A DNA stretch of 64,000 nt. Source: Sedimenticola sp. (lineage in GTDB: Bacteria; Pseudomonadota; Gammaproteobacteria; Chromatiales; Chromatiaceae). The position numbers and the translations under genes were made by a program. Below the pieces are notes generated by a model. That model saw nothing but the letters and a program-made list of their open reading frames with translations. It was not told the origin of the DNA and did no database searches. Positions 23,280 to 45,461 of the stretch are shown here, piece by piece. The stretch lies in NCBI GenBank assembly GCA_027068915.1, contig JAMOLT010000041.1, forward strand, positions 977 through 64,976, read 5' to 3'. Every line of letters starts with the position of its first letter. Position 1 is the stretch's first letter.

Positions 23280-23540
23280 CTAGTGTACTGCGTCGGAATC
23301 AAAGGCTCTTTCAGCGTCCCCCAAAAGTGCCAGGACAAGGCGGGGTGCGTTGCTCTCTTGGCAAGTACCCCAACACCGTCCTGGCGCTTTTGGGGGATTC
23401 CCTTCGGGTGAGCCACAATGCGGCCATCTGCGGCGCTGCGCTCGCTTGAAAGGGGGTGGCCCTTCCTGTGCGAGTACGCCTTGCATCTGGCCGCATTGTG
23501 ACTCACTGAAAGGGCCTTTGATTCTGACGCAGTACACTAG
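23280..23540. mobile_element. 261-bp MITE, CTAG-ended family, two internal hairpin modules
   Basis: 35-bp TIRs (33/35) CTAGTGTACTGCGTCGGAATCAAAGG...; second copy at 39177-39357. Confidence 0.88.
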
Positions 23541-23633
23541 CCGGATATTTCACCCAGTCGCCAAAAAATAAAGATAAGCGGTTGTTTTTTTATAGATATT
23601 ATTGGAATTTTAGCAAAGTACTAAAGTGTAACC

Positions 23634-23831
23634 GGGCCACGGCTTGCGTCCACCCTCGCACTGATCTTGCCGCCCAGAGATGGTATTTCCTCAATCATCA
23701 ATAGCTCAGGCTATTGATTCAATTGGAAATCCGCCTCTGAACGACAATCTCAGCACGATCATCGGACTCCTGAGTGAAACATCCGGCTAGTTGATGGAGG
23801 CGCGCCCGGTTATGCCGGGCGCGCTTTTTTT
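23634..23831 (+). ncRNA. candidate ~200-nt sRNA with a rod-like hairpin
   Basis: nested stems 23662-23761 (apical 9-bp atcaatagc/gctattgat), AT-rich upstream region, strong terminator; 5' end and strand inferred. Confidence 0.35.
23800..23831 (+). terminator. strong intrinsic terminator
   Basis: gcgcgcccgg-ttatg-ccgggcgcgc-T7. Confidence 0.9.
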
Positions 23832-23926
23832 CCACTGGTATTTCCCGTGTGCTAGGATTCATATACTTTATCCTGGACTCGTACGGGCATCTGCCTGCTC
23901 AGAGCGGGGCAACAGAGAGGCCTCAA

Positions 23927-24154
23927 ATGATGAGAAAGCAGAATATTACACAGAAGTTTTCGGTGGCATTCGCATATATCTTTTATGTTTTCGCTGTGAC
24001 CAGTGTTGTTGCTGTAGGCTATTATTACTTGCAGCATGGCGGTGATCATCCCTCTGTTGCTGCTTGGGCCGCCGCTATCGTTTTCTTTATTAGTGGTGGT
24101 GTGGTGCTGCACGTCATGGGGCGGGCCGATATTCCGGACTTCCGCATCAAGTGA
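23927..24154 (+). CDS. small two-TM membrane protein
   Basis: GAGAGG before ATG; two hydrophobic helices; C-terminal LHVMGRADIPDFRI. Confidence 0.7.
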   Translation: MMRKQNITQKFSVAFAYIFYVFAVTSVVAVGYYYLQHGGDHPSVAAWAAAIVFFISGGVVLHVMGRADIPDFRIK

Positions 24155-24177
24155 TTTATTGATTATCTCCGCTGATT

Positions 24178-24191
24178 TTGATCAGCATCAA
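24178..24191. promoter_or_regulatory. perfect FNR box upstream of yhcC-ubiU-ubiV
   Basis: TTGAT-cagc-ATCAA, 10/10 consensus. Confidence 0.88.
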
Positions 24192-24224
24192 GCCGCGCAA
24201 CAGGCATTTGTGGCATAAAGCGCC

Positions 24225-25196
24225 ATGTTTGAGAATCAAACCTTTCCGCAAGCCGTTCTGTCTGATCTGGTCAATACCTTTGGCCAGGATCTGAAGCGCC
24301 GTTACGGGGAGCGGGTACACAAGCTGGCTATTAATGCCGGTTTTACCTGCCCCAATCGTGACGGCAGCAAGGGCAGGGGCGGTTGCACTTTTTGCAACAA
24401 TGTTTCCTTCAGCCCGAATGCGCGTAGTGAGCCGGATGTGCTTGAGCAGCTTGCATCTGGCCGACAGGTGTTGGGAAAGCGTACTGGTGCAAAGAAGTTT
24501 CTGGCGTATTTTCAAGCGTATACCAATACTTATGCGGACGTGGACGCCCTTGACCGGATCTACCGCCAGGCGCTGTCCGAGCAGGATGTGGTGGGGCTTT
24601 CCATTGGCACCCGCCCGGATTGCGTGCCCCCGGCGGTGCTGGATCTGCTGGCTTCCTATCAGGATCAGGGGCATGAAATCTGGCTGGAGCTGGGCCTGCA
24701 GTCCGCCTTCGATCACACGCTGGAAAAGGTCAATCGCGGGCATGGTTTTGCAGAATACCGCCAGGCGACCGCCGCGGCTCATGCACGGGGGCTGGCGGTT
24801 TGCACGCACCTGATCGTGGGCCTGCCCGGAGAGCGTGCGGGAGATTCCCTGTCGAGCCTGGATCGCGTGCTGGAGCTGGGCGTACAGGGGCTGAAAATCC
24901 ATCCCCTGCATGTGGTGAAAGGCACCCGACTGGCGAACCAATGGCGGCGGGAGGAATACCGGCCGCTGCAATTTGGTGAGTATGTGGACGCCGTGGTGCA
25001 GATGGTGGCGCGCACTCCCGCAGATGTGGTTTATCATCGGCTTACCGGCACAGCGCAGGAAAATGTCCTTCTTGCCCCGCAATGGTGTAACTGGAAATGG
25101 CGGGTATTGAATGCCATTACCCGCAAACTGGCTGAATCCGGCCTCGAACAGGGTGCCATGCTTGCGCCCCTGCCATCTGCCGTCAATTCTGATTAA
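24225..25196 (+). CDS. yhcC: radical SAM protein, TIGR01212/YhcC family
   Basis: GFTCPNRDG..GGCTFC, YFQAYTNTY, GTRPDC, ELGLQS, KIHPLHVVKGT. Confidence 0.92.
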   Translation: MFENQTFPQAVLSDLVNTFGQDLKRRYGERVHKLAINAGFTCPNRDGSKGRGGCTFCNNVSFSPNARSEPDVLEQLASGRQVLGKRTGAKKFLAYFQAYTNTYADVDALDRIYRQALSEQDVVGLSIGTRPDCVPPAVLDLLASYQDQGHEIWLELGLQSAFDHTLEKVNRGHGFAEYRQATAAAHARGLAVCTHLIVGLPGERAGDSLSSLDRVLELGVQGLKIHPLHVVKGTRLANQWRREEYRPLQFGEYVDAVVQMVARTPADVVYHRLTGTAQENVLLAPQWCNWKWRVLNAITRKLAESGLEQGAMLAPLPSAVNSD

Positions 25197-25207
25197 GAGG
25201 TTTTTTC

Positions 25208-26203
25208 ATGCAGCTTGTATGTCCGGCGGGTAATCTGCCGTCCCTCAAGGCCGCCATCGATGAAGGTGCGGATGTGGTGTATCTGGGCTTCAAGGACGAT
25301 ACCAATGCGCGTAATTTTGCCGGTCTGAATTTCAATGACCGCACCCTGGATCAGGGGCTGGACTATGTGCGCAGCTGTGGCCGCGAGGTCTATGTCGCGC
25401 TCAATACCTACCCGCGTCCCCAGGGCTGGAAGCGCTGGCAGGCTGCGGTGGACAGGGCAGCGGACATGCAGATGAATGCGTTGATCGCGGCAGACATGGG
25501 GGTGCTGGACTATGCCGCCAACCGCCATCCTGATTTGCCTTTGCATCTGTCGGTGCAGGGTTCGGCCACCAACTACGAAGCGCTGAAATTCTACAAGGAA
25601 CGCTTTGGCATCCGCCGCGCCGTGTTGCCGCGGGTGCTGTCCATGTCCCAGGTGAAGCATGTGGCGGAAAACGCAGAGGTGGAAATCGAAGTGTTCGGTT
25701 TTGGCAGCCTGTGCGTAATGGTGGAGGGACGTTGCCTGCTGTCTTCCTATGCCGCCGGACAATCCCCCAACACCCATGGCTGCTGCTCCCCGGCAGGTGA
25801 GGTGCGCTATGAGGAAACCGCCACGGGCATGGAGACCCGCCTGGGCGGGGTGCTGGTGGACAAGGTGGGCAAGGGTGAAAATGCGGGCTACCCCACGGTG
25901 TGCAAAGGCCGTTACGATGCCCTGGACAAGACCTATTACGCCATGGAAGAGCCCACCAGCCTCAACACCCTGGATCTGTTGCCCGAGCTGCTGGCCGCCG
26001 GCGTGGTCGCCATCAAGATAGAAGGGCGGCAGCGCAGCCCCGCCTATGTGAGGCAGGTTGCGCAGGTTTGGCGTCAGGCCATCGACAGCTGTCTGAAAGA
26101 CCCCCAGGGTTTTCAGCCGCGCAACGAATGGATGCAACAGCTTGGCGCCGTATCCGAAGGGCAGCAGACCACCCTGGGTGCATATCACAGAACCTGGCAA
26201 TGA
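25208..26203 (+). CDS. ubiU: O2-independent ubiquinone hydroxylase subunit UbiU (U32 family)
   Basis: MQLVCPAG, NARNFAGLNF, GSLCVMVEGRC..SPNTHGCCSP..CKGRY, KIEGRQRSP. Confidence 0.93.
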   Translation: MQLVCPAGNLPSLKAAIDEGADVVYLGFKDDTNARNFAGLNFNDRTLDQGLDYVRSCGREVYVALNTYPRPQGWKRWQAAVDRAADMQMNALIAADMGVLDYAANRHPDLPLHLSVQGSATNYEALKFYKERFGIRRAVLPRVLSMSQVKHVAENAEVEIEVFGFGSLCVMVEGRCLLSSYAAGQSPNTHGCCSPAGEVRYEETATGMETRLGGVLVDKVGKGENAGYPTVCKGRYDALDKTYYAMEEPTSLNTLDLLPELLAAGVVAIKIEGRQRSPAYVRQVAQVWRQAIDSCLKDPQGFQPRNEWMQQLGAVSEGQQTTLGAYHRTWQ

Positions 26204-27102
26204 GTGAGACTTCCATGAAACTATCTCTTGGCCCCGTGCAGTACTACTGGTCCCGTGAGGATCTGATGGATTTTTACCAGCAGGTGGCGGATATGCCGGT
26301 GGATATCGTGTATCTGGGAGAGACCGTCTGTGCAAAACGGCGGTTGTTCCGCTTCGATGACTGGATGGATACCGCCCGCAAACTCCGGGACGCAGGAAAG
26401 GAGGTGATCCTGTCCACCATGGCGCTGCTGGAAGCGGAATCCGAGCTGAAATCCCTGCGGCGTATCTGCAACAATGGCGAATTCCTGGTGGAGGCCAACG
26501 ATATGGCGGCGGTGCAGCTGCTTTCGGCGGCGGGTCTGCCCTTTGTGGCCGGGCCGACGGTGAACATCTACAACGCCGCGACTTTGCAGGTGCTGGCGAA
26601 TGCCGGTCTCAAACGCTGGGTGCCCGCGGTGGAGCTGGGTAGGGACACCCTGGCGGCCATTGCGCTGGAGGCGCCGAAAGGCGTGGAGACGGAGCTGTTT
26701 GCCTGGGGGCGCATGCCTTTGGCCATGTCCGCCCGCTGCTACACCGCCCGCGCCTATGATCTGCCCAAGGACGATTGCCAGTACCGCTGCCTGGATCACG
26801 CCGATGGCTTGACATTGCGCACCCGGGAGGGCGAGCCTTTCCTGGCGATCAACGGGATCCAGACCCAGTCGGCATTGACCTGCAATCTGCTCGCTGAAGT
26901 GGATGAAATCAAGGCCCTTGGGGTGGATGTGCTGCGCATCAGTCCCCAGGCGCACCATACCGGCCGTATTGCGCAGGCATTTGCTGATGTGCTGCAGGGG
27001 CAGAGCAAGGAAAAGCTGCCCGATATGGAGCGTCTTATGCCGGTGGGTGGTTGTGACGGCTACTGGCAGGAGCAGGCCGGCATGCGCTATTCACAAAAGT
27101 GA
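26200..27102 (+). CDS. ubiV: O2-independent ubiquinone hydroxylase subunit UbiV
   Basis: KLSLGPVQYYW, GETVCAKR, SARCYTAR..DDCQYRC, NGIQTQS, CDGYW; ATGA overlap with ubiU. Confidence 0.93.
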   Translation: MSETSMKLSLGPVQYYWSREDLMDFYQQVADMPVDIVYLGETVCAKRRLFRFDDWMDTARKLRDAGKEVILSTMALLEAESELKSLRRICNNGEFLVEANDMAAVQLLSAAGLPFVAGPTVNIYNAATLQVLANAGLKRWVPAVELGRDTLAAIALEAPKGVETELFAWGRMPLAMSARCYTARAYDLPKDDCQYRCLDHADGLTLRTREGEPFLAINGIQTQSALTCNLLAEVDEIKALGVDVLRISPQAHHTGRIAQAFADVLQGQSKEKLPDMERLMPVGGCDGYWQEQAGMRYSQK

Positions 27103-27227
27103 GGTTGTTATTAACCCGGCAACGAACCATGTCATCCTCAGGATGTCAGACGCGAGCCAGGCCGCGACGCCTTGCCACGAATGCGCTCGGGATGGCTGAG
27201 GGCGACAGCGTTAGTCGCCGGTTACTA

Positions 27228-27707
27228 TCAGTCCGGTAACAGACCCGCGAGGCGGCTTGCCAGGCGATGCAGGGGATCGGGAAGCAGGTTCTCATCGAGA
27301 GAATAAAGCAGGTTCTTGATTTCCAGCCCCAGTTCCGTGTCGCCTTCCAGCTGCAGGCGGCGCTGGAAGAACAGGGTGTCCGGGTCTTCCTCGTTCAAGG
27401 CCAGCAACAAAAATTCCCTTGCCTTGCCGCCAAAGCGCACATCCGCCGCGCTTTGCGCTGGTGCTGGCGTGAGCTTCCCTTGCCGTAGCGTCAGGCGATA
27501 GTCCAGGGCCAGATCCATTACTTCGATCTGCAAAACCCTGTCCTGCAGGAAATCCAGCTCACCACTGGCCAGAGGCTCGGACAGCAGCCGGTTCAACAGC
27601 AGGGTCAAACCTTGTGAATGCAGTCGGCCAGGCAGCAGTTTTCCGGGCAGGGTAAGCAATGTCCCGACGCGGGGTGGGGTGAATGGCAAGGGCAAACGTG
27701 TAATCAT
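27228..27707 (-). CDS. ubiT: SCP2-domain ubiquinone biosynthesis accessory factor
   Basis: GELDFLQDR..EEDPDTLFFQRRLQLEGDTELGLEIKNLL; start trimmed to MITRL. Confidence 0.9.
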   Translation of the reverse strand: MITRLPLPFTPPRVGTLLTLPGKLLPGRLHSQGLTLLLNRLLSEPLASGELDFLQDRVLQIEVMDLALDYRLTLRQGKLTPAPAQSAADVRFGGKAREFLLLALNEEDPDTLFFQRRLQLEGDTELGLEIKNLLYSLDENLLPDPLHRLASRLAGLLPD

Positions 27708-27741
27708 GAGCGGAGTTTGCCATGGTAATTCCCGCAATCAT

Positions 27742-27755
27742 TTGAGGAACGTCAA
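27742..27755. promoter_or_regulatory. FNR/DNR-type box shared by the divergent ubiT and nnrS
   Basis: TTGAG-gaac-GTCAA, palindromic, 8/10 consensus. Confidence 0.7.
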
Positions 27756-27837
27756 GGAAAAGGCGGATAGAGCAAGGAAAATGCTCACTTCTGATCGTCA
27801 TAATTGTCATAACCGTTTCTTCCAGGAGAAGTACAGC

Positions 27838-29037
27838 ATGCCCTTACAGATTGGTGATCCTCCGGTAATGCGAAAACCCGGTGGTTTTGCACTGTTTGCT
27901 CTAGGGTTTCGCCCGTTTTTTCTGGCGGCAGGTGTTTCTGCGTTGGCGTTCTTGGGATTGTGGCTGGTTCTATGGCGGGGTGTGGTGCCTGCGGGGGGGT
28001 ACTTTGCTCTGGTGGAGTGGCATGCCCATGAGATGCTGTTTGGGTATACGGCAGCGGTAATTGCAGGTTTTTTGCTGACCGCAGTAAAAAACTGGACTGG
28101 TATGGCGGTGCCGACGGGCAGGTTGCTGGCGGTAATTTTCGGTATATGGTTGCTGGGGCGGCTACTGGTGTTGGTGCCAGGTGTGCCAGGGTGGCTGGTG
28201 GCTGCTGTCGATCTGGCTTTCATTCCTTTGGTGGGCTGGGCGCTCTGGCGCCCTCTGTGGTATGGGAGAAACAAAGCCAACCGCATGTTTTTGCTGATAT
28301 TTGCAGGGATGACTCTGGCCAATCTGCTAATGCATCTGGATGTGGCGGGCGTGGCGCCGGGGCTGTGGTTCCGAGGCGCCTATCTGATGATGGATATGGT
28401 GCTGCTGGTGTTGTTGCTGGTGGCGGGCAGAGTGGTGCCGTTCTTTACCGATAAGGCAGTCATGGGCGCCCGTTCCGTTGTCCGCCCCTGGGTGGAAAAG
28501 GCGGCTTTTGCCAGTATGGTTGCTGTGGCTGCCGCCGAGCTGGCTTTCCCTCTTGGGCCGGCGGCCGGCATTGTATTGTTGGTGGCGGCGCTGATCCAGG
28601 GCATACGCCTGGCTGGCTGGTACAGCAATGGTATCTGGCGAGTGCCGATTCTCTGGGTGCTGCATATAGGTTATGCCTGGCTGGTGCTGGGGTTGGCTTT
28701 GCGTGGCCTGGCCGGATTCGGTCTGCTCCCTTCAGCGATTGCCCTCCATGCCATCACCGTTGGTGGCATTGGTGTGCTGACCCTGGGCATGATGGCGCGG
28801 GTGGCGCTGGGCCATACCGGTCGAAACATCAACGACACCGGCCCCTTGTTGCCGATAGCTTTTGTGCTGCTTAATATCGGTGCCGTACTGCGCGTGTTTG
28901 GCCCCCTGTTTGCAGCAGAGCAATTCAATTTGTGGATCGATATTGCCGGAGGGCTGTGGATGCTCGCATTCGCAGCGTTTGTTCTGGTGTATACGCCCAT
29001 ACTGATCAGGCCCCGGGTTGATGGCCGGCCAGGTTAA
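27838..29037 (+). CDS. nnrS: NnrS heme-copper membrane protein (NO stress)
   Basis: FALGFRPFFL, WHAHEMLFG, FLLTAVKNWTG, GRVVPFFT, ARVALGHTGR; GGAGA RBS. Confidence 0.95.
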   Translation: MPLQIGDPPVMRKPGGFALFALGFRPFFLAAGVSALAFLGLWLVLWRGVVPAGGYFALVEWHAHEMLFGYTAAVIAGFLLTAVKNWTGMAVPTGRLLAVIFGIWLLGRLLVLVPGVPGWLVAAVDLAFIPLVGWALWRPLWYGRNKANRMFLLIFAGMTLANLLMHLDVAGVAPGLWFRGAYLMMDMVLLVLLLVAGRVVPFFTDKAVMGARSVVRPWVEKAAFASMVAVAAAELAFPLGPAAGIVLLVAALIQGIRLAGWYSNGIWRVPILWVLHIGYAWLVLGLALRGLAGFGLLPSAIALHAITVGGIGVLTLGMMARVALGHTGRNINDTGPLLPIAFVLLNIGAVLRVFGPLFAAEQFNLWIDIAGGLWMLAFAAFVLVYTPILIRPRVDGRPG

Positions 29038-29212
29038 TTGTCTCTATTGTGGGAAGAAGATCCCCGCAGATGGCTCCCACTGCCCTGAATGCGGAGCGGT
29101 GTCCCATTTTCAGGAAAAAGGCTATCGTGCCGGCATACGCCGCAAGTTTCTGCTCTGGTTCGTGATTCTGGTGGTTTTTTGTACGGTTATGATTCTGTGG
29201 TTGCCGCGCTGA
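29021..29212 (+). CDS. small Zn-ribbon membrane protein, DnrP-like
   Basis: CLYC..CPEC plus C-terminal TM ending MILWLPR, recalled from Pseudomonas DnrP; overlaps the nnrS end. Confidence 0.65.
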   Translation: MAGQVNCLYCGKKIPADGSHCPECGAVSHFQEKGYRAGIRRKFLLWFVILVVFCTVMILWLPR

Positions 29213-29230
29213 AACCGATCCCGCAGGCTG

Positions 29231-31450: not shown

Positions 31451-31476
31451 GATACAGCTCTTCGGCGCCTGGGGCG

Positions 31477-32280
31477 TCAGGCGAGGATCATCTCGACGGC
31501 GGCATCCAGTGTGGCGCGGATGTCGGGGTCATCGGTAATCGGGCGTACCAGCGCCATTTTGCAGGCCTCTACCGGCCCGATGCCATCATCGATCAGTTGC
31601 GCCGCATAGACCAGCAGCCGGGTGGAGATTCCCTCATCCAGGCCATGGCCCTTGAGGTTGCGGGCGCGGTGGGCGATATCTACCAGATGTTCGGCCAGCG
31701 CAGCATCCACGCCGCCTTCATGGGCAACGATACGTGCTTCTTCGGCCTTGTCCGGGTAATCGAAATCCAGCGCAGTGAAGCGTTGCTTGGTGGACTGTTT
31801 CAAATCTTTCATCAGGCTCTGGTAGCCGGGGTTATAGGAGATCACCAGCTGAAAATCAGGATGTGCCTCCAGCAGTTCACCCTTCTTGTCCAGCGGCAGT
31901 ACGCGGCGGTGATCGGTGAGCGGATGGATTACCACCGTGGTGTCCTGGCGCGCCTCGACCACTTCGTCAAGATAGCAGATGGCGCCAACACGCGCCGCCA
32001 CCGTCAGCGGGCCATCCTGCCAGCGGGTGCCCTTTTCGTCGAGCAGGAAACGCCCCACCAGATCGGCGGCGGTCATGTCCTCGTTACAGGCGACAGTGAT
32101 CAGCGGTTTCTGCAGCTTCCACGCCATATACTCGATGAAACGTGATTTTCCGCAACCGGTCGGTCCTTTGACCATCACTGGCAGGCGGCGGTTATAGGCA
32201 GATTCATAGAGTGTTACCTCGTTGCCGGTAGTCTGGTAGAAAGGTTCCTCTTCGATCAGGTACTGCTGTTTGTCAGTCAT
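31477..32280 (-). CDS. cbbQ: RuBisCO activase AAA+ ATPase (CbbQ/NorQ family)
   Basis: [34 protein letters not shown]. Confidence 0.95.
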
Positions 32281-32303
32281 CGCATTGTTCTCGCTTCGGG
32301 TCG

Positions 32304-32480
32304 ATCCTCATTAGCAGGCCATTGAAAAACGCAGTTTTTTGATGGCCTGTGTGCGGTACAAGGATGTACCGCCATTCTCAGTGGCTGTAAGCCATTGAAA
32401 ATGAGGGAACCGGGAAATCGCATTTTCCGGTTCCGTGGTTGAAACAGCCCATGGAGGAACTTTTTCAACATCCTCATTAG
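32304..32480. mobile_element. multi-hairpin MITE between cbbM and cbbQ with flanking direct repeats
   Basis: ends CAGGCCATTGAAAAA / TTTTTCAACATCCT related to the 6375-6408 IR; ATCCTCATTAG at 32304-32314 and 32470-32480; four internal hairpins. Confidence 0.75.
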
Positions 32481-32559
32481 AGAAGAGAGTGAAGCCCACT
32501 CTCTTCTGTGATGAGGACTCCACCCCATGATGGGGTGAAGTCTCATGTAGCCGGGTTGC

Positions 32560-33945: not shown

Positions 33946-34041
33946 GATTTTCTCCTTTACTCCGGGTTATAATTCACTAAGCGGCAGTGGCCGCGTGCGG
34001 GTATTCTCGGGAAAAACTGGTATAAAGGGAAATCAATGCTG

Positions 34042-34372: not shown

Positions 34373-34379
34373 ATTTGCG

Positions 34380-35853: not shown

Positions 35854-35865
35854 GGAGAAGAAAAC

Positions 35866-36123: not shown

Positions 36124-36153
36124 TACTCGTTAAAGAAACGGAATCAAGGCAAG

Positions 36154-36182
36154 AAGCCTCGCCACCTGGCGGGGCTTTTTTT
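36154..36182 (+). terminator. intrinsic terminator after rpmA
   Basis: aagcctcgcca-cc-tggcggggctt followed by a T-run. Confidence 0.85.
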
Positions 36183-36194
36183 GTTTTGCGGTAG

Positions 36195-37273
<1,079 letters not shown>

Positions 37274-37274
<1 letters not shown>

Positions 37275-38398
37275 TGATTAGCAGAGATGGCATCGCTGAA
37301 ACCCGCCGCTGGGTCGTCAAAATCGGCAGCGCCTTGCTTACCGCAGAAGGCCAGGGGCTGGATCGCCAGGCGCTGGGTGGCTGGGTGGATCAAATGGCAG
37401 GCTGGCTGGAACAGGGCAACGAACTGGTGCTGGTTTCCTCCGGCGCGGTGGCGGAAGGCATGTGCCGCATGGGTTGGGACAAGCGCCCCGATACCCTTCA
37501 CGAGTTGCAGGCTGCCGCAGCGATCGGCCAGATGGGGCTGGTGCAGGCATGGGAAAGCTGCTTCCAGCGCCGGGGTTTGCATACCGCCCAGGTGCTGGTG
37601 ACCCACGATGATCTTTCCAATCGCCGCCGCTATCTGAATGCGCGCAGCACCTTGCAGACCCTGCTGGCGCTGGGTGTAGTGCCGGTGGTGAATGAAAACG
37701 ATGTGGTCGCCAATGATGAATTGCGTTTTGGTGACAATGACACTCTTGCTGCGCTGGTGGCCAATCTCATCGAGGCGGATCTTTTGGTATTGCTGACAGA
37801 TCAGGATGGTTTGTTTGACGCCGACCCACGCACTTCAACGGAAGCCAGCCTGATTGAACATGTACGGGTTGATGACCCTCGCCTGGACGCTTTTGCGGGT
37901 GATACGGGCAGCGGTGTTGGCAGTGGTGGCATGCTGACAAAGTTGCGTGCTGCACGACTGGCAGCCCGTTCGGGGGCGGCAACCATCATTGCTTCCGGTA
38001 AGGAAAAAGATGTCCTGCATGGTATTGCCAGGGGAAAGCAACTGGGCACATTACTGGTGCCCTCCCAGGAACCGGATGCTGCACGCAAGCGCTGGTTGGC
38101 TGCGCAGCTACAGGCGCATGGCAAGCTGATGCTCGATGCCGGTGCGGTAAAAATGCTGCGGGAATCCGGCTCCAGTTTGTTGTCTGTGGGCGTGACGGCG
38201 GTGGAAGGCCGTTTTTCCCGGGGGGAGATGGTGGTTTGTGTTGGCCCGGATGGTCGGGAAGTGGTGCGGGGACTGATCAACTACTCAGCAGACGAAGCGC
38301 GGAAAATTGCCGGAAAACCCAGTCATGATTTTGAACGGATACTGGGCTACATGGATGAAAAGGAACTGATCCACCGGGATAACCTGGTTGTCCTGTGA
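37274..38398 (+). CDS. proB: glutamate 5-kinase with PUA domain
   Basis: [31 protein letters not shown]. Confidence 0.97.
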
Positions 38399-39180
38399 CC
38401 TGGCTGCTGGCGTATGCCGCTCTGGGCGCTGTGGCCGGCGTGCTGGCCGGGTTGATGGGCATCGGCGGTGGTCTGGTGATTGTGCCCGGCTTGCTGTTTC
38501 TGTTTCATTTGCAGGGTTTTGAATCCTCTTTTCTCTCCCATATCGCCATTGGAAGCTCCCTGGCGATTATTGTCCCCACTGCGCTTTCTTCGCTGTGGGC
38601 GCACCACAAACGTGGCGCCATCGACTGGTCTGTCGTACTGCGGCTAACGCCAGGGCTGATGTTCGGCGCGCTGTGTGGCGCCTGGTTGGCGTCCCAATTC
38701 AGCACCGACTTGCTCAAGACCCTGTTCGGACTGTTTCTGTTGATGGTAGCTATCCAGATATTTTCAGGGCGCAACCCTGACCATGGAAAGACACGGGGGC
38801 AGGGCGCTGCTGTCTTTTTTCCCGTAGGGGCAGTGATTGGAACAGTCTCGGGACTGGTGGGCATTGGCGGCGGCACCATGACCGTGCCTTTTCTCGTCTG
38901 GCGGGGAAAGACCTTGCCCGGATCCATAGCGACTTCGGCGGCTTGTGGCCTGCCCATCGCCGTTGCCGGAACCCTGGGCTTCATGCTCATGGGAGCGGAT
39001 GTGGGGGCAGGATCATCCACCGGCTTCGTGTATTGGCCTGCGGTTGTAGCCGTTGGGCTGTTTGCTGTGCTCATGGCTCCTGCTGGTGCACGGTTGGCGC
39101 ACAGCCTGCCGATTCCGGTGCTGAAAAAATGGTTTGCCTTGCTGCTGGTGGTGGTAGGGGTGCGCTTGCTGATCAGCTAG
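38395..39180 (+). CDS. sulfite exporter TauE/SafE family membrane protein
   Basis: [13 protein letters not shown] twice-repeated motif, AIGSSLA, ATSAACG; stop codon lies in the MITE end. Confidence 0.88.
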
Positions 39181-39357
39181 TGTACTGCGTCGGAATTAAA
39201 GGAGCTTTCAGAGCCTCCCTTCGGGTGAGTCACAATGCGGCCATCTGCGGTGTCGTACTCGCTTGAAAGGGGGTGGCCCTTCCTGCGCGAGTACGCCTTG
39301 CATCTGGTCGCATTGTGACGCACTGAAAGGGCCTTTAATTCCGACGCAGTACACTAG
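39177..39357. mobile_element. 181-bp MITE, CTAG-ended family, one internal module
   Basis: 35-bp TIRs (33/35); same family as 23280-23540 but lacking its ~80-bp first module. Confidence 0.88.
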
Positions 39358-39892
39358 GATCCCAAAAGTTGCCTGAAGCCCCTGTGGGCGGCGGAGTGTT
39401 TGGGTCGAGACGAAGGAAGCGGATCACCCTTCCCTGATCATCCCGAAGGGCCAGGCGATTGTCCTGTAACCGGTATGCAAACTGCTGAATCTGCCCCGTG
39501 TCAGCATCAATCAGCTGGAGACGCCCTGGCTGGATTTTCACATAGAAATTTCTGTATTGCTCCCGTGACCAGTACATGCGGGCGTAGCCCCGTTTGATCG
39601 CTAGAAGAATACGGTTTTTGCTGACCCAGGCACCTTCCAGCAGTTTGGGCTGTTGCGGCAACAGAGAAGCGCCGCCAGGTGGTGCAGGATAGGGCGACAG
39701 GTGATGTTGATAGCCAAAGGGGGTGGAGGAATATCCTATATGCCCGGAGAAGTCCTGGTAGAGACGCATCGTTTCGAACATGCCCAGCATGAAACGCATC
39801 ATTTCTGCAAAGGGGCTGGCGTTGTTCCAGTTGCTGGCGCCTGCCGGCCCGATGAGCAGGAGCAGAAAGAGAACTTGTGCGGTTTTTTTCAC
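39335..39892 (-). CDS. exported hypothetical protein
   Basis: GTG start with signal peptide (KKTAQVLFLLLLIGPAGA), Pro/Tyr linker, beta-rich C-terminal domain; last codons lie inside the MITE. Confidence 0.7.
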   Translation of the reverse strand: MKKTAQVLFLLLLIGPAGASNWNNASPFAEMMRFMLGMFETMRLYQDFSGHIGYSSTPFGYQHHLSPYPAPPGGASLLPQQPKLLEGAWVSKNRILLAIKRGYARMYWSREQYRNFYVKIQPGRLQLIDADTGQIQQFAYRLQDNRLALRDDQGRVIRFLRLDPNTPPPTGASGNFWDPSVLRRN

Positions 39893-40005
39893 GGAAACGA
39901 CTGCTGGGCGGCTGTTGATTCGACAATTATAAAGCAATGATTAGACTCTTGAAAAAGTATGGAGTAAATTGTTTCGATTGTCCCGGAATCTGGAGGTTTA
40001 AGGCA

Positions 40006-40443
40006 TTGACTGGAGGGAAAAATAAAGATGGAGAATCACAGGAACTGCGCCGCGCCCTTGATGAGCTGCTGGCAGAGCGAAAACAGTTGCTGGCAGTTTT
40101 TTGCCAAGCGGCAAACGCCAGCCAGGAGCATAGTGAAGAAAGTCGTACCCAGCTTTTTGCGCGCCTTTGTCAGCTATTGATGGATTATGCCGCCTTGTGG
40201 CAATTCGAGATCCATGATGTGCTGGTGCATTCTGCGGCAGAGCATTCTACTGCGGTGAAGGCGCTGGAACTGCACCAGCCCGTTATCCAGCAGGCAGCGA
40301 ATAATGCCCTGGATTTCAATGATATGTTTGATATCTTTGTGCAAGAGGGAAAAACCCCCCAAATGGAATCCCGGTTGTCAGTTCTTGGTGAATCCCTGGC
40401 AAACCGTTTTGAAGCAGAAGATCAGATTGTCCTGAACCTTTGA
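40006..40443 (+). CDS. Rsd/AlgQ-like anti-sigma70 factor
   Basis: LAERKQLL..C, LCQLLMDY, ALDFND, LSVLGESLANRFEAEDQ; start uncertain (TTG 40006 after GGAGG; ORF open from 39937). Confidence 0.75.
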   Translation: MTGGKNKDGESQELRRALDELLAERKQLLAVFCQAANASQEHSEESRTQLFARLCQLLMDYAALWQFEIHDVLVHSAAEHSTAVKALELHQPVIQQAANNALDFNDMFDIFVQEGKTPQMESRLSVLGESLANRFEAEDQIVLNL

Positions 40444-40452
40444 GGAATAACC

Positions 40453-42756
40453 ATGGCGTTGCTTGATAGCTCGATTGACAAGAATTCAGCGGCATTGCTG
40501 CAGGATGAATTGATTGTCCCAAAAAGGAAGTCCCTGCGGCTGGATACCTTTCCCAGGGGAACGGACAATGCGCGCATCGATGTGCGCCTGGAGCCATCGT
40601 TGAAAGCAGCCATTGAAGCAAATGCACGCTCTAGTATGGCCCGGCATATGCGTACATGGCACCTGTCTGCAAGCAGCGAACTACTGGGTGAAGAGGAGGC
40701 GGCGGCCGAGCAGTTCCAGAAGGTGTTCAACAAGCTAAGCATCGTCACAGCGCAAAAGGCCAGAAAATCTTCCCGAAGAGAAGTGTATCAGCTGTTTATC
40801 CTTTCCGTGGTAAAGCAGATCTATCTGAGCGTGGATCAGCAATTGCGGGAATGCAGGGAAGATTTTGACGAGGATTCGCTCCTTGGTGAGACTTCTGCCA
40901 GTGGTCGGGTTTCCCGGCACGAAAAACTGTGGCGTTTCAGCCGGCACCAGTCCATGTTGCGCTATCTTGTGAGCCGTGAGCTCATTGAGCAGCTCCACAG
41001 TATGGAGCTGGTGGGTCGCAAACAGCGGAAAAGTGTGCTTGCCCTGTCATGGCCGGTTGCAGAGGAAATGCTGTTCAACCCCTTGTTGCAGCTGAGTGAT
41101 TTGAGCGATGAAGCAGCCTTTATCGAGATCTATCCCTTCCTGCTGATTAAGCCCAAGATGTTCAGAAATTTTGAGCGGCTGGTGCTGGACGTATTCTGTC
41201 ACTGGCTGCCGGACTGCCCGGTGCGACGGTTGTCGGAGCAGCAGAATGATGATCTGAATACATTGCAGCTGCGCCGGGACAAAGGGGATTTTCCTGCCTA
41301 TGCCCAGGTGGAGGCCTATCTGCGCGCAATCATGTCCCAATCCGAATACCAGCGGGCGGAAAACAGCTGGTTCGATGATCCCAGGAACCTGTCATGGCTG
41401 CTGGGAGGAGATGGGGACAAAGGGCGGCCTGGTTTCTGGGATGAGGAACGCTGGCATGGCTTCCAGGACAATTTGCTGCAGGAGCTGGAAAAAGCTTTCC
41501 ATAGAAACGGCCTGCTGGAAATGATTTTTGCCAGCGCCATGGTGCCTGACCTGTATCGCAGCCTTGGGCGCAAAGGTGCGTTACGCCTTCTTTACGAATA
41601 CCTGCTTGACGGGCGCAGCAAAAAGGAATTGCTGCCGATATTGCAGCAATTCAAGGATATTTCAGACCTGGATCTCTATGTTGAGCGTATGGATGTGGTG
41701 CGCAGGGAAATCAAGCAGGCCACCCCCGGTCAGCGCAGAAACTGGCTGATCAAGGTGCTGGAAGGCTACGCAAACCTGCGGCGGGATCTGAAGCTGTCCT
41801 GGGAGATGTACCGGGCCATGGATCTGATCCACCTTTTGGAGAAGCCCAAAGATTTGGCATTGTCCCGGGCAAACGCGTTGTTGCAGGAGTTTTCCCTGCA
41901 GCAGGAAGAGGAGGCGCCCGAGGTCAACGGACATGTTATTCTCAAGGCCGATCTGCGAGGTTCGACGGAACTGACCGCCACCATGATTAGGGAGGGATTA
42001 AACCCGGCAGCCTATTTCAGCCAGAATCTGTTTGATCCCATCAATACCTTGTTGCAGAAATATGGCGCCGAGAAGGTGTTTGTCGAAGGCGATGCGGTCA
42101 TTCTCATGATCCTGGATCAATCCAGCCCCCCCTCCCAGGTAGTAGCAAGAGCCTGTGGGCTGGCGTACGATATCATCGATCTCGTTATGCAACGAAATCG
42201 GGAAAGCCGGCAGATGGAGCTTCCTGAGCTGGAGCTGGGGATAGGGGTTTCCTATGTGGCCGAAGCGCCTTGCTATTTGTTTGACGCAGGGCGTAAAATA
42301 ACCATTTCCCCTGCTATTAACAGGGCTGATCGTCTCTCTTCCTGCACAGGACGTGATTTTATCGGATTTGGCGAAGAGCGGGCTTGGGGCGTGGAGGTCA
42401 TCAAGGTCGAACAGATTGCCAACAGTGTCTCAGGAGAAAGCCAATATTGCCGTTACAATGTGAATGGCATAGAACTGGATCTACCCGCATTCCAGCATCT
42501 GACAGAAGAGATGGTGTTGAAGAAGATAAAGGCATCCAGCTATGGGAAAGATACCGGCGATCATTATTATGTTGGTCGATTTCCTGATCTTTCCGGAAAA
42601 ACCCGATGGCAGGTATTGCGCCAGAGTATGGTCAAATACTGGGATGGAGGAAAGCTTCTGGCTCCTTCAGCGAAGAGTGGGGAAAGTTTTTACGAACTGG
42701 TTACAGATCCAGAAATACTAGGCCGGACACGGGAAAAGTTATCCGGTCGAAATTGA
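40453..42756 (+). CDS. large protein with a C-terminal class III nucleotidyl-cyclase-like domain
   Basis: ILKADLRGST, KVFVEGDAVIL, LGIGVS, ISPAINRADRL; N-terminal ~490 aa unrecognised. Confidence 0.8.
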   Translation: MALLDSSIDKNSAALLQDELIVPKRKSLRLDTFPRGTDNARIDVRLEPSLKAAIEANARSSMARHMRTWHLSASSELLGEEEAAAEQFQKVFNKLSIVTAQKARKSSRREVYQLFILSVVKQIYLSVDQQLRECREDFDEDSLLGETSASGRVSRHEKLWRFSRHQSMLRYLVSRELIEQLHSMELVGRKQRKSVLALSWPVAEEMLFNPLLQLSDLSDEAAFIEIYPFLLIKPKMFRNFERLVLDVFCHWLPDCPVRRLSEQQNDDLNTLQLRRDKGDFPAYAQVEAYLRAIMSQSEYQRAENSWFDDPRNLSWLLGGDGDKGRPGFWDEERWHGFQDNLLQELEKAFHRNGLLEMIFASAMVPDLYRSLGRKGALRLLYEYLLDGRSKKELLPILQQFKDISDLDLYVERMDVVRREIKQATPGQRRNWLIKVLEGYANLRRDLKLSWEMYRAMDLIHLLEKPKDLALSRANALLQEFSLQQEEEAPEVNGHVILKADLRGSTELTATMIREGLNPAAYFSQNLFDPINTLLQKYGAEKVFVEGDAVILMILDQSSPPSQVVARACGLAYDIIDLVMQRNRESRQMELPELELGIGVSYVAEAPCYLFDAGRKITISPAINRADRLSSCTGRDFIGFGEERAWGVEVIKVEQIANSVSGESQYCRYNVNGIELDLPAFQHLTEEMVLKKIKASSYGKDTGDHYYVGRFPDLSGKTRWQVLRQSMVKYWDGGKLLAPSAKSGESFYELVTDPEILGRTREKLSGRN

Positions 42757-42782
42757 ATTAGTTGCTCCTGTTCGGGACTGAG

Positions 42783-43187
42783 ATGGAGCATCGGGATGCT
42801 GCTATGTATGCCTGTAAGCATAAACTACACCGTGTAAAAACAATGCTGCGTGCGCAATTGAGCGTTCGTGGCGCCAACACCCAGTCAGTCCTTATTGAAC
42901 AAATCTCGGAAGCCGGACTGGATTTCTTGTGTGATGCCGGTGCGCAATGCCGGATCATGCCCGAAGAGCGAAAAATGCCCGGCCCGGTTTTTGGCGTGTA
43001 TGTGGACATCGTGTTCCGGCTGCCCAATTCCGACCGGGAGCTGCAGACGCGATGTCAGGTGCTGTTCTGTCATCGTCTTTCTCAAAACAGCTACCGGTTT
43101 GGTTGCGAATTTCATCAACTCGCCGATGCGAATCAGGAATTGTTGCAGGAGTTTCTGCAGCAGGCAGAGATTGAACTAGTTTCCTGA
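42783..43187 (+). CDS. PilZ-domain protein
   Basis: QISEAG (D/NxSxxG-like), C-terminal YRFGCEF..L..LLQEFL; start uncertain (42762/42783/42804). Confidence 0.7.
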   Translation: MEHRDAAMYACKHKLHRVKTMLRAQLSVRGANTQSVLIEQISEAGLDFLCDAGAQCRIMPEERKMPGPVFGVYVDIVFRLPNSDRELQTRCQVLFCHRLSQNSYRFGCEFHQLADANQELLQEFLQQAEIELVS

Positions 43188-43203
43188 TTGGCCCGGAAGG
43201 CGG

Positions 43204-45183
43204 CTATAAAGCTGTACTGTCAGTGGCCTCTGTTTGGGCGGTCTTCTCCGCCTCGGTTCCCAGTATCGGCAGCATCCGCTCTGACAGCCGCGTAAGCTTG
43301 CGTTTCAGGCGGTGGTCATAAATTGCGGCGTAGGTAAATACCCGCTTTACATAGCCTTTTGTCTCATTGAAAGGGATCAATTCTACCCAGATATCAGCAG
43401 GCAGGCGGGATTTTGGCAGCCAGCGTTTTACCCTGTGCGGGCCTGCATTGTAGGCGGCAGTCGCCAGCACCGGGTTTTCTCCAAGAGTGGACAGCACATA
43501 TGCGAGGTAGGTGGTTCCTAGTTCAATATTGATTTTTGGAGAAATCAGATCTCTGTGCCTGGGTGATTTCTTTTTCTTTAGCAGTTTCTTCGATACATAT
43601 TTGGCGGTAGCCGGCATGAGCTGCATCAGTCCCACGGCACCTGCAAAAGAGCGCACACTGGCATTGAATGCGCTTTCCTGTCGGATTACGCCGTAAACCC
43701 AGGAAATGTCCAGCTTGTTTTTCTTCGCGTAGTGCTGCACATCCGGTTTGTGCTCCAGGGGGAATCGCAGTTCCAGATCATCCCAGAAACCAGATTTGGC
43801 CAGGGTGAAGATTGCCTGATCATGCCAGTCCCATGATTGCGCCAACTCGGCAGCGGCAATGTATTCCTCCGTGCTGAGGTCACGGGTGGCGAAGCGCCAT
43901 TCACGGCGGGCATCCACCCAGCGGTTCAGCGCCAGCAGTTCCCTGGTTCTGGCTACCGCCGGATCATTACTGATTGCCGTAGCAATATCTTTTTCCACAA
44001 TACCCTTTCCCGGAGCAAACCGATAGGTTTCGCCAATCCGATCGGCGGCGAGAAAACCGTAGTAGCTGCGCTCGCTGACCAGTTCGCTATACAGCGCGTT
44101 CGCCTGGGATTGCTGGCGGGTCTGTTCCAGCGCCCGCGCCAGCCAGTACCGCCAGCGTTCGCTCTGCTGCTCTTTCTGCGGCATTTGGCCGATTCTGGAG
44201 ATCACCTGGCTCCAGTCGCTATGGAGCAGGGCGGATTCGACCAGCGCTTCCTGGAGCTTGCTGTCATGGCCGCAGGGCTGAAGAGCGGACATGAAATCAG
44301 CGGCAACCGGATCTTCATTGCGTGTCAGCCACAGTGCGAGCTTGCGATTGACCAGATGCTGATTCAGGGTGGAAATGGCAAAGTGCTGTTGCAGTTTATT
44401 CCAGTAGCTCAACGCCGCCAGAGGGTTCTTTCTGATTTGCCGGTAGGCGGCATCCACCAGGATTTCCTGACGCTGAGGGTGCTCTTTCTTCAGTGTCGGA
44501 TCTGTAAAGACCAGGGCAGGCTTGCCATGTACCTTGATCCAGGTGTTTACCCAGGGGCGATCCTTGGCGGGAAGGGATTTCTTCAAATAGCGGGCAAGTT
44601 TGATCTGTCCCTTGTCCATGGCCAGAGCAATGCGTTGCCAGACCAGCCTGGTGGTCAGCAGACCGGCTTCACGCCAGGACTTGAATACCGGGTCACAGGC
44701 TTTTGGTCTTGATTTTCCGTGCAGCCATATAGGCTCAACCTGTGAAAAAGCGCGTTTTTTCTCGCCGGTGTAAATCAGCGCCTGCAAATAGTGGCACTGG
44801 CGACTGATGTTGGATTGCGGGGTATAGAACCGTATGTAGCTCTTCCAGTCCTGGCGATTGGCCAGTACATTCAGCCAGCGGGCGCGCAGCAAGGCTGCCA
44901 GTGGCGTATGCTCATTCTTTTCGAGAAAATCAGCGACTTCCTGGTTTTTTACTGTTCCCAGCCTGTGCTTGAGCCGGGCGTATTCCAGATAGGGATAAAG
45001 AGGATAGTTGCGCAGCAGGGAATCCATATTGCCAGGCAGGGTTTTGCCTGCCGCTGCGATTTTCTCCGCACCCAGAAACAGCTTGCGCTGCGCTTCCTGG
45101 GCGATAGTGCCGGCACTGGCGTTTGCTGCCAGCAACAGTATTCCAGCCAGGGTGATATCGATTATTCTGTGCCGGGCAATCAT
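43204..45183 (-). CDS. slt: soluble lytic murein transglycosylase Slt70
   Basis: YPLYPYLEY, IRQESAF (catalytic Glu), GLMQLMP, AAYNAGP, ETKGYV. Confidence 0.95.
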   Translation of the reverse strand: MIARHRIIDITLAGILLLAANASAGTIAQEAQRKLFLGAEKIAAAGKTLPGNMDSLLRNYPLYPYLEYARLKHRLGTVKNQEVADFLEKNEHTPLAALLRARWLNVLANRQDWKSYIRFYTPQSNISRQCHYLQALIYTGEKKRAFSQVEPIWLHGKSRPKACDPVFKSWREAGLLTTRLVWQRIALAMDKGQIKLARYLKKSLPAKDRPWVNTWIKVHGKPALVFTDPTLKKEHPQRQEILVDAAYRQIRKNPLAALSYWNKLQQHFAISTLNQHLVNRKLALWLTRNEDPVAADFMSALQPCGHDSKLQEALVESALLHSDWSQVISRIGQMPQKEQQSERWRYWLARALEQTRQQSQANALYSELVSERSYYGFLAADRIGETYRFAPGKGIVEKDIATAISNDPAVARTRELLALNRWVDARREWRFATRDLSTEEYIAAAELAQSWDWHDQAIFTLAKSGFWDDLELRFPLEHKPDVQHYAKKNKLDISWVYGVIRQESAFNASVRSFAGAVGLMQLMPATAKYVSKKLLKKKKSPRHRDLISPKINIELGTTYLAYVLSTLGENPVLATAAYNAGPHRVKRWLPKSRLPADIWVELIPFNETKGYVKRVFTYAAIYDHRLKRKLTRLSERMLPILGTEAEKTAQTEATDSTAL

Positions 45184-45194
45184 TGTTTCACTCC

Positions 45195-45461
45195 AGGGTC
45201 TGTCAACACTAATCCAATAGACTTTGCCGGGGCAATTTTTTCACCCAGCAAGGCTGAATGAGTGAAGTATAGTGGCGCTATATGAACGAATGATAACGCT
45301 GCTGGGTGGAAAATAGCCCCAGCCCTACGGGTTGCGCCTGAAAAAGCACCACTCGGCGTTGCTCGTCGTTCATTTGGAGTAGCCAAATCCCCCTCCTTGC
45401 GCCTTGGTTGGCGCTTTTTCAGGTGCAACAAGAGCCCATTGGATTAGTGTTAACAGACCCT
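45195..45461. mobile_element. 267-bp MITE with AGGGTCTGT-type TIRs and two internal modules
   Basis: 24-bp TIRs (23/24); two opposed hairpin modules with a CCCTACGGG linker. Confidence 0.85.

Follow-up and report, generated by a model that had tools for sequence, protein, structure and literature searches.

Three short elements in a 64,000-nt window of a Sedimenticola sp. contig (the whole stretch of DNA analysed here) end in two different types of terminal inverted repeat (TIR) and carry the same interior of inverted hairpins. This raises the question of what the hairpins do and how they came to stand behind different ends, for which the first-pass annotation had proposed a protein-recognised internal-loop motif, shuffled as a cassette between unrelated MITE shells.

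Three elements with different ends and one interior

The three elements, their TIRs, the CCC-N3-GGG mini-hairpins and the five modules lie where that annotation had placed them, in coordinates as well as in sequence (Table 1). TIRs start with CTAGTGTACTGCGTCGG.. and (C)TAGGGYCTGTTAAC.. in the window families; they are 35–55 nt long with 80–90% complementarity in family A, and 29 nt long with 90% complementarity in family B.

Table 1. Elements and their parts in the window (R1, covariance model of the module).
Feature	Position	Strand	Remarks
Family A element, full two-module form, 261 bp	23280..23540	.	
Family A left TIR (C-TA-G TGTACTGCGTCGGAAT..CTTTCAG)	23280..23314	+	
Module Y	23319..23395	+	CAAGGCG 23336, CAACACCG 23371; R1 60.4 bits, E 1.7e-14; folded
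Central mini-hairpin CCCTTCGGG	23400..23408	+	second site 39217
Module X	23414..23500	-	R1 66.8 bits
Family A right TIR	23506..23540	-	
Family A element, module X only, 181 bp	39177..39357	.	
Module X	39231..39317	-	R1 68.9 bits, E 5.7e-17
Family B element, AGGGTCTG-ended, 267 bp	45195..45461	.	TIRs 45195-45223 and 45433-45461
Module M1	45231..45318	+	CAAGGCT 45249, TAACGCTG 45294; R1 46.8 bits
Central mini-hairpin CCCTACGGG	45323..45331	+	
Module M2	45337..45423	-	CAAGGCG 45400, CAACGCCG 45354; R1 58.2 bits

The full element at 23280 folds as RNA over its entire length at -180.8 kcal/mol (z -16.2), and its module Y is 10 nt short of the 271-bp genomic consensus, while the copy at 39177 is without the first module. 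Both X modules keep CAAGGCG (minus strand, 23477 and 39294) and have a degenerate 3' motif (CAGCGCCG, CGACACCG), unlike most genomic copies, which carry CAACACCG; the X module at 23414 additionally has tandem G.A/A.G pairs within its outer stem, with CAGATG on either arm. Family A occupies about 50 places in the genome (89 TIR ends), in sizes of 52, 63, 76, 101, 158–166, 181–184, 212 and 261–271 bp that correspond to shells with no, one or two modules. Copies are located at gene ends or in leaders. The terminal CTAG of the 39177 element supplies the TAG stop codon of the open reading frame 38395..39180, and the family B element adjoins the ribosome-binding site of a minus-strand gene for 659 aa (43204..45183).

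The module is a covarying hairpin that folds on one strand

The module is roughly 87 nt long and runs from an outer stem through a 5x6 internal loop, in which C[AAGGC]G faces C[AACRCN]G, a 7-bp stem, a second loop (GCA/CAAG, with CAAG forming one side) and an 8-bp stem to a 5-nt apical loop. The loop-motif pair keeps its spacing, as 110 of the 171 modules share a span of 51 nt, and positions C18, G70 and A55, which the module search pattern did not force, were conserved at 96–100%. Within the window, the strict loop-motif pattern matched three times against 0.09 expected, and R1 recovered exactly the five modules of the A and B elements (46.8–68.9 bits; next match at E=2.7). A single motif does stand behind different TIRs, as had been supposed.

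Pairing within the module is maintained through sequence change: 81.4% of cells were paired compared with 53.1% in shuffles, and the covariation score was 0.709 compared with 0.213, a value reached by none of 500 shuffles (slid controls, 0.13–0.26), with the qualification that these shuffle controls overstate significance because the module copies are related by descent. Outer-stem pairing was a criterion for selecting modules; helices 2 and 3 played no part in the selection and were paired in 91% and 83% of cases, respectively. Under a strand-symmetric filter, G.T pairs on the AAGGCG strand outnumbered A.C pairs by 175:30 in outer stems and by 69:15 in inner stems, about 5:1 overall, from which it follows that the AAGGCG strand is the one that folds, as RNA or as single-stranded DNA (ssDNA). 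These results bear out the earlier idea of a conserved internal-loop motif held in covarying, strand-specific hairpins. Searches of Rfam, at gathering and at permissive thresholds, returned just miRNA-precursor models far below threshold, and we know of no fit of the motif order or spacing to SRP (4.5S) RNA, kink-turns, attC sites or self-cleaving ribozymes.

Shells diverge and occasionally recombine

All shells are TA-flanked, have TIRs of about 30 nt and follow one layout of TIR, inward-reading module, CCC-N3-GGG, inverted module and TIR. Most start with TAG[T/G]G, family C with TTAACCC, and a TTCAGNG box is found in nearly all shell classes, the window's own B family being without it. Given these common TA ends and this layout, the shells are not truly unrelated, as the first-pass annotation had called them; chimeras and re-paired modules occur as well. 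The UNCG linker, which had been taken as part of the common architecture, is ruled out as a general feature, since the central N3 is family-specific (UNCG type in the window, GAA, GCA, AAA, GGA etc. elsewhere). The compensatory change between the TIRs of the two A copies (AATCAAAGG/CCTTTGATT vs AATTAAAGG/CCTTTAATT) is real, and genome-wide nine changes were identical in both TIR arms compared with about one expected, although one-arm changes (73) far exceed the compensatory ones.

Genomes vary in which modules are found with which shell. In the window genome, the B-type shell holds M1 and M2, in Thiobacillus MAGs Y-type modules; in other shells, the partner of module Y is X, Z, Y or M2; one locus carries a B-left/A-right chimera, and neighbouring elements share terminal CTAGs (C13:16846). 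To this extent the proposed shuffling has a basis, but not as a free cassette. Were the modules independent small mobile palindromes nested secondarily into unrelated shells, one could account for shells with zero, one or two of them, for nested insertions such as the 52-nt insert within Y modules of Sedimenticola MAGs, and for the insertion of elements into one another's termini. We nevertheless regard this origin as very improbable: modules never vary in where they sit or in their inward direction, none was seen on its own between copies of a target duplication, orphan matches all lay inside further shells, and the sequence remaining in short forms does not represent clean empty sites. Moreover, another genome (G009) carries the same family B insertion as at 45195 with exactly module M1 lost in situ, that is, a module deleted from a two-module ancestor. 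The shells look like a single superfamily whose members diverge and now and then recombine.

The elements are mobile and insert at TA

The 39177 insertion site is empty (TTAGGATCCC) in three genomes (G003, G019 and G006) and the 45195 site in another (G007); together with the same-site variants, these empty sites demonstrate that the elements move. Comparison with empty sites places insertion at the TA of (C/T)TAG (CTAG/NTAN) or of TA/TAG stop codons, and the change from TTAGGATCCC to CTAG[element]CTAGGATCCC upon filling fits a TA or a 4-bp duplication equally.

In the Sedimenticola genome itself, no transposase with A- or B-type TIRs was found. Inverted TIR matches more than 400 bp away, sought at 120 loci as a sign of an autonomous copy, were not seen; unpaired TIRs in the Sedimenticola genome were truncations or were interrupted by other repeats, and a solo B TIR (C20:10602) had no adjoining transposase. 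An IS5 (IS427-group) parent was rejected, with no PF13586 (DDE_Tnp_1_2) in the genome and one weak match among the 15 genus relatives searched. The suggested RAYT/HUH link was likewise dismissed: none of four Y1_Tnp loci had a module within about 1.5 kb, and no modules flanked a multi-copy 326-aa Y1-like gene.

The behaviour of IS630 elements and the precedent of RUP, an IS630-family MITE of Streptococcus pneumoniae, have been described (PMC2229807). RUP resembles the window elements in its CTAG preference, TIRs, lack of coding capacity and, probably, TA duplication, and it too inserts into other mobile elements (PMC2229807). The window elements might be ordinary IS630/Tc1-mariner-derived MITEs. 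In that case, an IS630-family transposase acting in trans would bind the TIRs on double-stranded DNA and double the TA within CTAG, while the interior, though conserved, would only enhance transposition or be a passenger. The target, TA inside (C/T)TAG, agrees with this, and IS630 ends of relatives (CTAGTACCTCACCAA at L194, CTAGTACTTCGTCAAG at L198, TAGTACCTCAGCCCAG at L233) resemble some MITE TIR classes (CTAGTACCTCGTCCAG, CTAGTACTCTTTCAAGG). However, the TIRs of families A, B and C matched none of the IS630 ends examined, these three loci included, and none of the IS630 loci examined contained a module. DDE_3 is absent from the Sedimenticola genome and from a complete genome (G010), both of which carry elements, so that no co-resident IS630 with matching ends is available, in contrast to IS630-family MITEs. 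Across 300 genomes, module and DDE_3 were independent, with DDE_3 in 23 of 92 module genomes and 54 of 208 others (odds ratio 0.95, p 0.89), and 20 of 25 module-saturated genomes were without it. Further differences from such MITEs are the folded core common to several TIR classes and the strand-specific G.T bias, which recognition of double-stranded DNA does not explain. IS630 was set aside as the parent, on the grounds of its module-free loci and the absent co-occurrence, and we consider this origin of the elements unlikely.

The module is widespread and related to the core of Correia elements

The covariance model, built without Neisseria sequences, was run on 300 class-level genomes and detected modules in 92 of them, belonging to 87 of 271 genera, about a third of the gammaproteobacterial genera sampled, with Burkholderiales among them. 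An exact 20-mer of the A TIR was absent from 185,579 species genomes, and family A as such is restricted to close relatives. Elsewhere, one genome (G041) contains about 100 near-identical 280-bp copies, and a Pseudomonas aeruginosa megaplasmid carries a B-type shell with Y and M2.

R1 also aligned over model positions 1–87 with the Correia elements of Neisseria (E 4e-8 to 1e-3; best matches 36–38 bits, E about 1e-8), one of the alignments covering the inner CGCAG...CAAG as well. Like the window elements, Correia elements have TA-flanked ends starting TAGTG, a directional core, a long stable hairpin and no known transposase. Their core has the parts of the modules, namely a stem end ..CAGGA, CAAGGCG, an inner hairpin of about 40 nt (CGCAG...CAAG), CAACGCCG and T(A/C)CTGG; an IHF site and outward promoters are also among Correia features. 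They differ in size and build: at 105–157 bp, a Correia element has a single module, with the TIR itself serving as outer stem, whereas window-type elements measure 261–280 bp and combine a pair of inverted modules with a central mini-hairpin and a TIR of its own of about 35 nt. The TIR sequences are unrelated, and the 26-bp repeat TATAGTGGATTAA(C/A).. present at both Correia ends (PMC5039591) is missing from the ends of the window elements. Correia elements have been described as Neisseria-specific (PMC5039591, PMC10969869), and our literature searches by TIR and core sequence strings led to Neisseria papers alone. Correia elements (CREE or nemis) are thus probably a one-module member of the same old and very widespread superfamily.

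The suggested likeness to ERIC repeats extended to short motifs only. ERIC/IRU elements are TA-flanked long hairpins in which GCAGG-AAGGCG and AACGCA occur close to the base of the stem, and an E. coli copy indeed contains GCAGGAAGGCG and AACGCAG; their form, a 127-bp consensus with a 44-bp central core, is not that of the window elements. Motif spacing and inner hairpin differ, and R1 gave no match to ERIC at E<=10, so that homology is not supported. REP/REPIN sequences are alike in combining two inverted hairpin units into a larger hairpin and in their single-strand logic. REPINs, which are much shorter, lack both TIRs and a TA duplication and lie on either side of their RAYT gene, whereas the window elements possess TIRs and have no module near any Y1_Tnp gene.

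A possible cis-acting recognition structure

We favour, with some confidence, the explanation that these are TA-inserting MITEs of one old Correia-like superfamily, in which the conserved loops serve as a cis-acting recognition structure. At each element end, a variable TIR precedes a module that always reads towards the interior. In a single-stranded state, be it RNA or ssDNA, the TIRs would pair as a basal stem, with the modules as arms around the tiny central hairpin. The two invariant internal loops, C[AAGGC]G/C[AACRCN]G and GCA/CAAG, would be recognised by a conserved trans-acting factor, putatively required for the element's own spread or survival, and stems and TIRs may drift, constrained by pairing only. 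Shorter copies would stem from in-situ deletion of whole hairpins, and new combinations from insertion into one another's terminal CTAG followed by recombination. Protein recognition of the loop motif, as proposed at the outset, is plausible. TA duplication together with TIRs is a hallmark of double-strand DDE cut-and-paste, for which a folded strand is unnecessary, and this weakens the explanation.

The module could instead be active as co-transcribed RNA, to the benefit or the detriment of the host, with a conserved ribonuclease or RNA-binding protein (RNase III or RNase E type) recognising the sense module and setting mRNA processing or stability. ERIC, like Correia, is reported to affect these processes. 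The wobble bias, the strongly negative fold z-score and the position of copies at gene ends or in leaders are consistent with such a role, the inverted pair would ensure that one sense module is met first from either direction of transcription, and Correia hairpins are reported to be bound and cleaved by RNase III (PMC2649163, PMC10969869). On the other hand, the apical loops differ from stable RNA tetraloops, the UNCG linker is not general, DNA hairpins tolerate G.T pairs too, and if selfish copies stay conserved by the hundreds in many lineages, a requirement of the element accounts for this more readily than host regulation does. We consider this role rather unlikely.

Within the favoured explanation, it is also conceivable, if unlikely, that the twin-loop hairpin and not the TIR is the true cis site, the TIRs being a mere stem that joins the TA junctions. 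A widely conserved enzyme other than an IS630 or IS5 DDE transposase would then act on the folded strand, either a protein of the host or a transposase not yet recognised as such.

To our knowledge, Correia elements, for which no transposase is known, have so far been regarded as peculiar to Neisseria. Their core is now seen to be an example of a two-loop hairpin, covarying and strand-specific, that is found behind many different TIRs, and the motif offers a concrete object that can be taken into pull-downs, mobility assays and structure probing. The covariance model can annotate a large unannotated repeat class, exemplified by the P. aeruginosa copy, and also accounts for many 'rod-like sRNA' and 'palindromic repeat' annotation calls. 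In addition, a comparative route is opened to the mobilising or binding factor. If the twin-loop hairpin is the cis site, the same factor would also be what moves Correia elements in Neisseria, a mobiliser that has long been missing.

Miniature elements in the window and in the host genome

Two CTAG-ended miniature elements (family A) and one element with different ends (family B) are located in the window, and their coordinates and sequences, together with the mini-hairpins and the five CAAGGC(G/T) motifs, were on checking as the first-pass annotation had described them. The repeat finder delimited TIR arms of 35–55 nt with 80–90% complementarity in family A, whose window copies are alike, and of 29 nt with 90% complementarity in family B. 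Between the TIRs lie hairpins of about 87 nt, here called modules, which are of types Y and X in family A and of types M1 and M2 in family B. The AACRCCG-like motif claimed opposite CAAGGC held in part: the strict pattern CAAGGCK-N25-42-AACRCYG matched three modules in the window (0.09 expected), while it misses the X modules of both copies, in which the 3' motif is mutated (CAGCGCCG and CGACACCG). This motif reads CAACACCG in most genomic copies. GATCAG precedes CTAG in both window copies of family A and not in other genomic copies, which is probably a coincidence. A dispersed repeat directly to the right of the first copy occurs at least 10 times in the host genome at 87–94% identity and dozens of times in congeners (G007, G013, G012 and G005).

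Within the host genome (G000; 2.83 Mb, 54.7% G+C), where the window belongs to contig C41, family A is found at about 50 places and has 89 recognisable TIR ends. Its complete copies fall into discrete sizes (52–53, 63–65, 76–77, 101, 158–166, 181–184, 212 and 261–271 bp), corresponding to one shell with no module, Y, X, or both. Family B is represented by two full and three partial copies, and a motif scan of the host genome found the same interior in further shells, namely family C (TA-TTAACCYGGC...) and several additional ones on contigs C10, C13, C56 and C61. Both ends of the window's contig, and several other contigs, bear a repeat of about 1.3 kb that codes for a 326-aa protein, whose match to Y1_Tnp (HUH) is weak (19.6 bits) and does not reach the cut-off. 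This repeat probably breaks the assembly, and no modules flank it.

Features and their coordinates (window positions unless a contig or accession is named)
Feature	Location	Remark
Family A element, CTAG-ended	23280-23540	
Family A element, CTAG-ended	39177-39357	
Family B element, AGGGTCTG-ended	45195-45461	
Mini-hairpin CCCTTCGGG	23400 and 39217	family A elements
Mini-hairpin CCCTACGGG	45323	family B element
GATCAG before CTAG	23271-23279, 39168-39176	family A elements
Dispersed repeat	23541-23790	
ORF upstream of 39177 element	38395..39180	TAG stop supplied by the element's left CTAG (39177-39180)
Convergent ORF	39335..39937	22 nt within the right TIR (39335-39357)
659-aa gene	43204..45183	minus strand; Shine-Dalgarno region 45181-45195
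Family C shells, host genome	C33:91240-91700 and C52	
326-aa-protein repeat, host genome	C41:1-120, C41:76053-76238, C10:1-2573, C37:65082-66367, C30, C47	
Family B/A chimera	G013:C12:6850-7550	locus L214
Family C mini-element	G009:C120	locus L213, TIR-only
B-type element, P. aeruginosa PA83	NZ_CP017294.1, 8550-8820	L232 1455-1722

A covarying twin-loop hairpin that folds on one strand

The modules follow a common plan. An outer stem (18 bp or longer) leads to C[AAGGC]G on the 5' arm and C[AACRCN]G on the 3' arm; beyond these come a lower stem of 7 bp, a small loop in which GCA faces (C)AAG, an upper stem of 8 bp and an apical loop of 5 nt. AAGGCG and AACRCN are 51 nt apart in 110 of the 171 modules and 50–52 nt apart in 158, and outside the positions fixed by the search pattern C18 (99%), G70 (100%), A55 (96%) and G41 (98%) are near-invariant. 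Covariation was measured on 49 modules, any two of which have more than 14 differences over 87 positions: under this structure 81.4% of cells were paired (53.1% when shuffled), and the covariation score was 0.709 against 0.213 for shuffled sequences, a value reached by none of 500 shuffles, for copies that are related by descent and whose outer-stem pairing was a selection criterion. Sliding the partners by 1–3 columns gave scores of 0.13–0.26. The two inner helices, which had no role in module selection, were 91% and 83% paired, with changes on both sides in 13 of 15 pairs. The boundary of the 5x6 loop is fixed by G24-C63, which is replaced by A-U in seven sequences. In Y modules of five loci from Sedimenticola and related MAGs (L098, L137, L152, L153 and L159), the inner hairpin is interrupted on its 3' side, immediately after CAAG, by one and the same insert of about 52 nt (GTCGCTCCAGTGCATCCATGCACTCGCGACACTTGGACATCC..), a second small element whose nesting point is fixed.

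Using a filter that counted Watson-Crick pairs only and was thus strand-symmetric, we found that mismatches on the AAGGCG strand were far more often G.T than A.C in both the outer stems (175 vs 30) and the inner stem (69 vs 15). Because each G.T reads as A.C on the complementary strand, and module copies are present in both genomic orientations, this bias argues for selection acting on the folding of the AAGGCG strand in particular, which could be RNA or ssDNA; symmetric cruciform extrusion would leave it unexplained. In all two-module elements AAGGCG is on the top strand in the left-end module and on the bottom strand in the right-end one, so that each module reads inward from its own terminus. 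The predicted whole-element fold is a 35-bp TIR stem bearing two arms and the mini-hairpin (−180.8 kcal/mol, z −16.2, for a family A element as RNA; −62.3 kcal/mol, z −7.6, for the family B element as DNA). Compensatory TIR changes, initially noticed between the two window copies, recur across family A, with nine cases of the same change in both arms where about one was expected, beside 73 one-arm changes; these arms lack the G.T/A.C bias (27 vs 21).

Relation to Correia elements and distribution

The covariance model of the module (R1), built from the 49 modules and without any Neisseria sequence, matched genuine Correia elements, fetched from Neisseria prophage contigs via the published TIR (PMC5039591), over its whole length (E 4e-8 to 1e-3). 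Their outer stem reads ..TTAAATTTAAATCAGGA / TACTGGTTTAAATTTAA.. and their loops read CAAGGCG and CAACGCCG; like Y modules, they have CGCAG...CAAG in the inner part. Given the whole-model match and these motifs, the short Correia element is a one-module member of the superfamily. Reviews place Correia, ERIC and RUP in distinct families with only general properties in common (PMC2229807, PMC10969869); a literature search for a description of a core common to these families found none, and an Rfam search for the module yielded only miRNA-precursor models far below threshold. The likeness to ERIC suggested previously extends to the short motifs GCAGG-AAGGCG and AACGCA, but unlike Correia, ERIC gave no match to R1, and we left it outside the superfamily.

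With at most 14 candidates scored per genome, R1 found modules in 92 of 300 genomes drawn evenly from the class (87 of 271 genera). Among the matches listed for the Y-type core pattern in the species-genome collection were Thiodiazotropha, Sedimenticola, Thiohalomonas, Thiobacillus, Sulfurimicrobium, Salinisphaera and Lysobacterales, with at least nine TIR classes and a single layout. The B shell holds M1 and M2 here, Y and M2 in Pseudomonas and a Y-type module in Thiobacillus; elsewhere Y is partnered by X, Z, Y or M2. On the 398-kb IncP megaplasmid of P. aeruginosa PA83, an unannotated B-type twin-hairpin element, whose first loop motif is degenerate (CAGACGC), sits between CoA-transferase and acyl-CoA dehydrogenase genes.

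Insertion sites and mobility

Joined element flanks were searched against the genus for empty sites. The 39177 element is absent from G003, G019 and G006, where the site reads ..TTAGGATCCC.., an upstream gene's TAG stop overlapping a convergent gene's stop (TTAG/CTAA). In the host genome the element has CTAG on either side, which is consistent with insertion at the TA of (C/T)TAG and a duplication of either TA or 4 bp. It supplies the upstream stop, and the convergent ORF runs into its right TIR. The orthologous site holds a family C mini-element in G009 and a chimera with a family B left end and a family A right end in G013, so that three related genomes have three different elements there (A with module X, TIR-only C, B/A chimera); the site is either an insertion hot spot or a place where one element replaced another in situ. 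The family B copy is absent from G007, while G009 has the same insertion lacking exactly module M1, so short forms can arise by in-situ hairpin loss. Some elements abut each other or have a terminal CTAG in common (C13:16846, C10:514716), and one MAG (G041) has about 100 near-identical 280-bp family C copies. The family B element adjoins the Shine-Dalgarno (GGAG, 7 nt, ATG) of the 659-aa gene, whose promoter must therefore be inside or beyond the element; Correia elements supply promoters when placed directly upstream of a gene like this.

The TA/CTAG target suggests an IS630-family transposase as mobiliser, and IS630 ends in relatives (CTAGTACCTCACCAA, CTAGTACTTCGTCAAG, TAGTACCTCAGCCCAG) are similar to two MITE TIR classes. 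However, the IS630-family domain DDE_3 is absent from the host genome, from the complete genome G010 and from 20 of 25 module-saturated genomes, no IS630 locus contains a module, no two paired TIRs are separated by more than 400 bp at any of 120 loci, and across the same 300 genomes module and DDE_3 occur independently (23/92 vs 54/208, odds ratio 0.95, p 0.89). Since IS copies go missing from draft assemblies and MITEs persist after their parent elements are gone, this evidence only weakens the IS630 model. An IS427-type transposase is absent from the genus (one weak match among the 15 relatives searched), no transposase with either TIR type occurs in the host, and the RAYT/HUH link raised by the first-pass annotation was rejected, as host Y1_Tnp genes are not near modules. 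Unrelated ends were seen in the host's 326-aa Y1-like gene, which has multiple copies, and in an IS3 element.

Interpretation

These elements form a mobile, TA-targeting, gene-less class whose shell and module combinations vary, as in the G013 chimera. Each end bears a conserved, covarying twin-loop hairpin that folds strand-specifically, and the class is very widely distributed and homologous to the Correia core. Rather than a cassette shuffled between unrelated shells, one diverging superfamily with occasional exchange of ends or modules is the better description; such exchange is facilitated by the fact that every element recreates its CTAG target at either end. As loop sequence is kept while stems drift, across many selfish lineages, we favour, with some reserve, the explanation that the loops form a surface recognised by a conserved factor needed by the element itself. 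Under this explanation, the factor has about an even chance of acting at the DNA level in mobilisation, and an RNA-level role, modelled on the RNase III role reported for Correia (PMC2649163), would be the other option.
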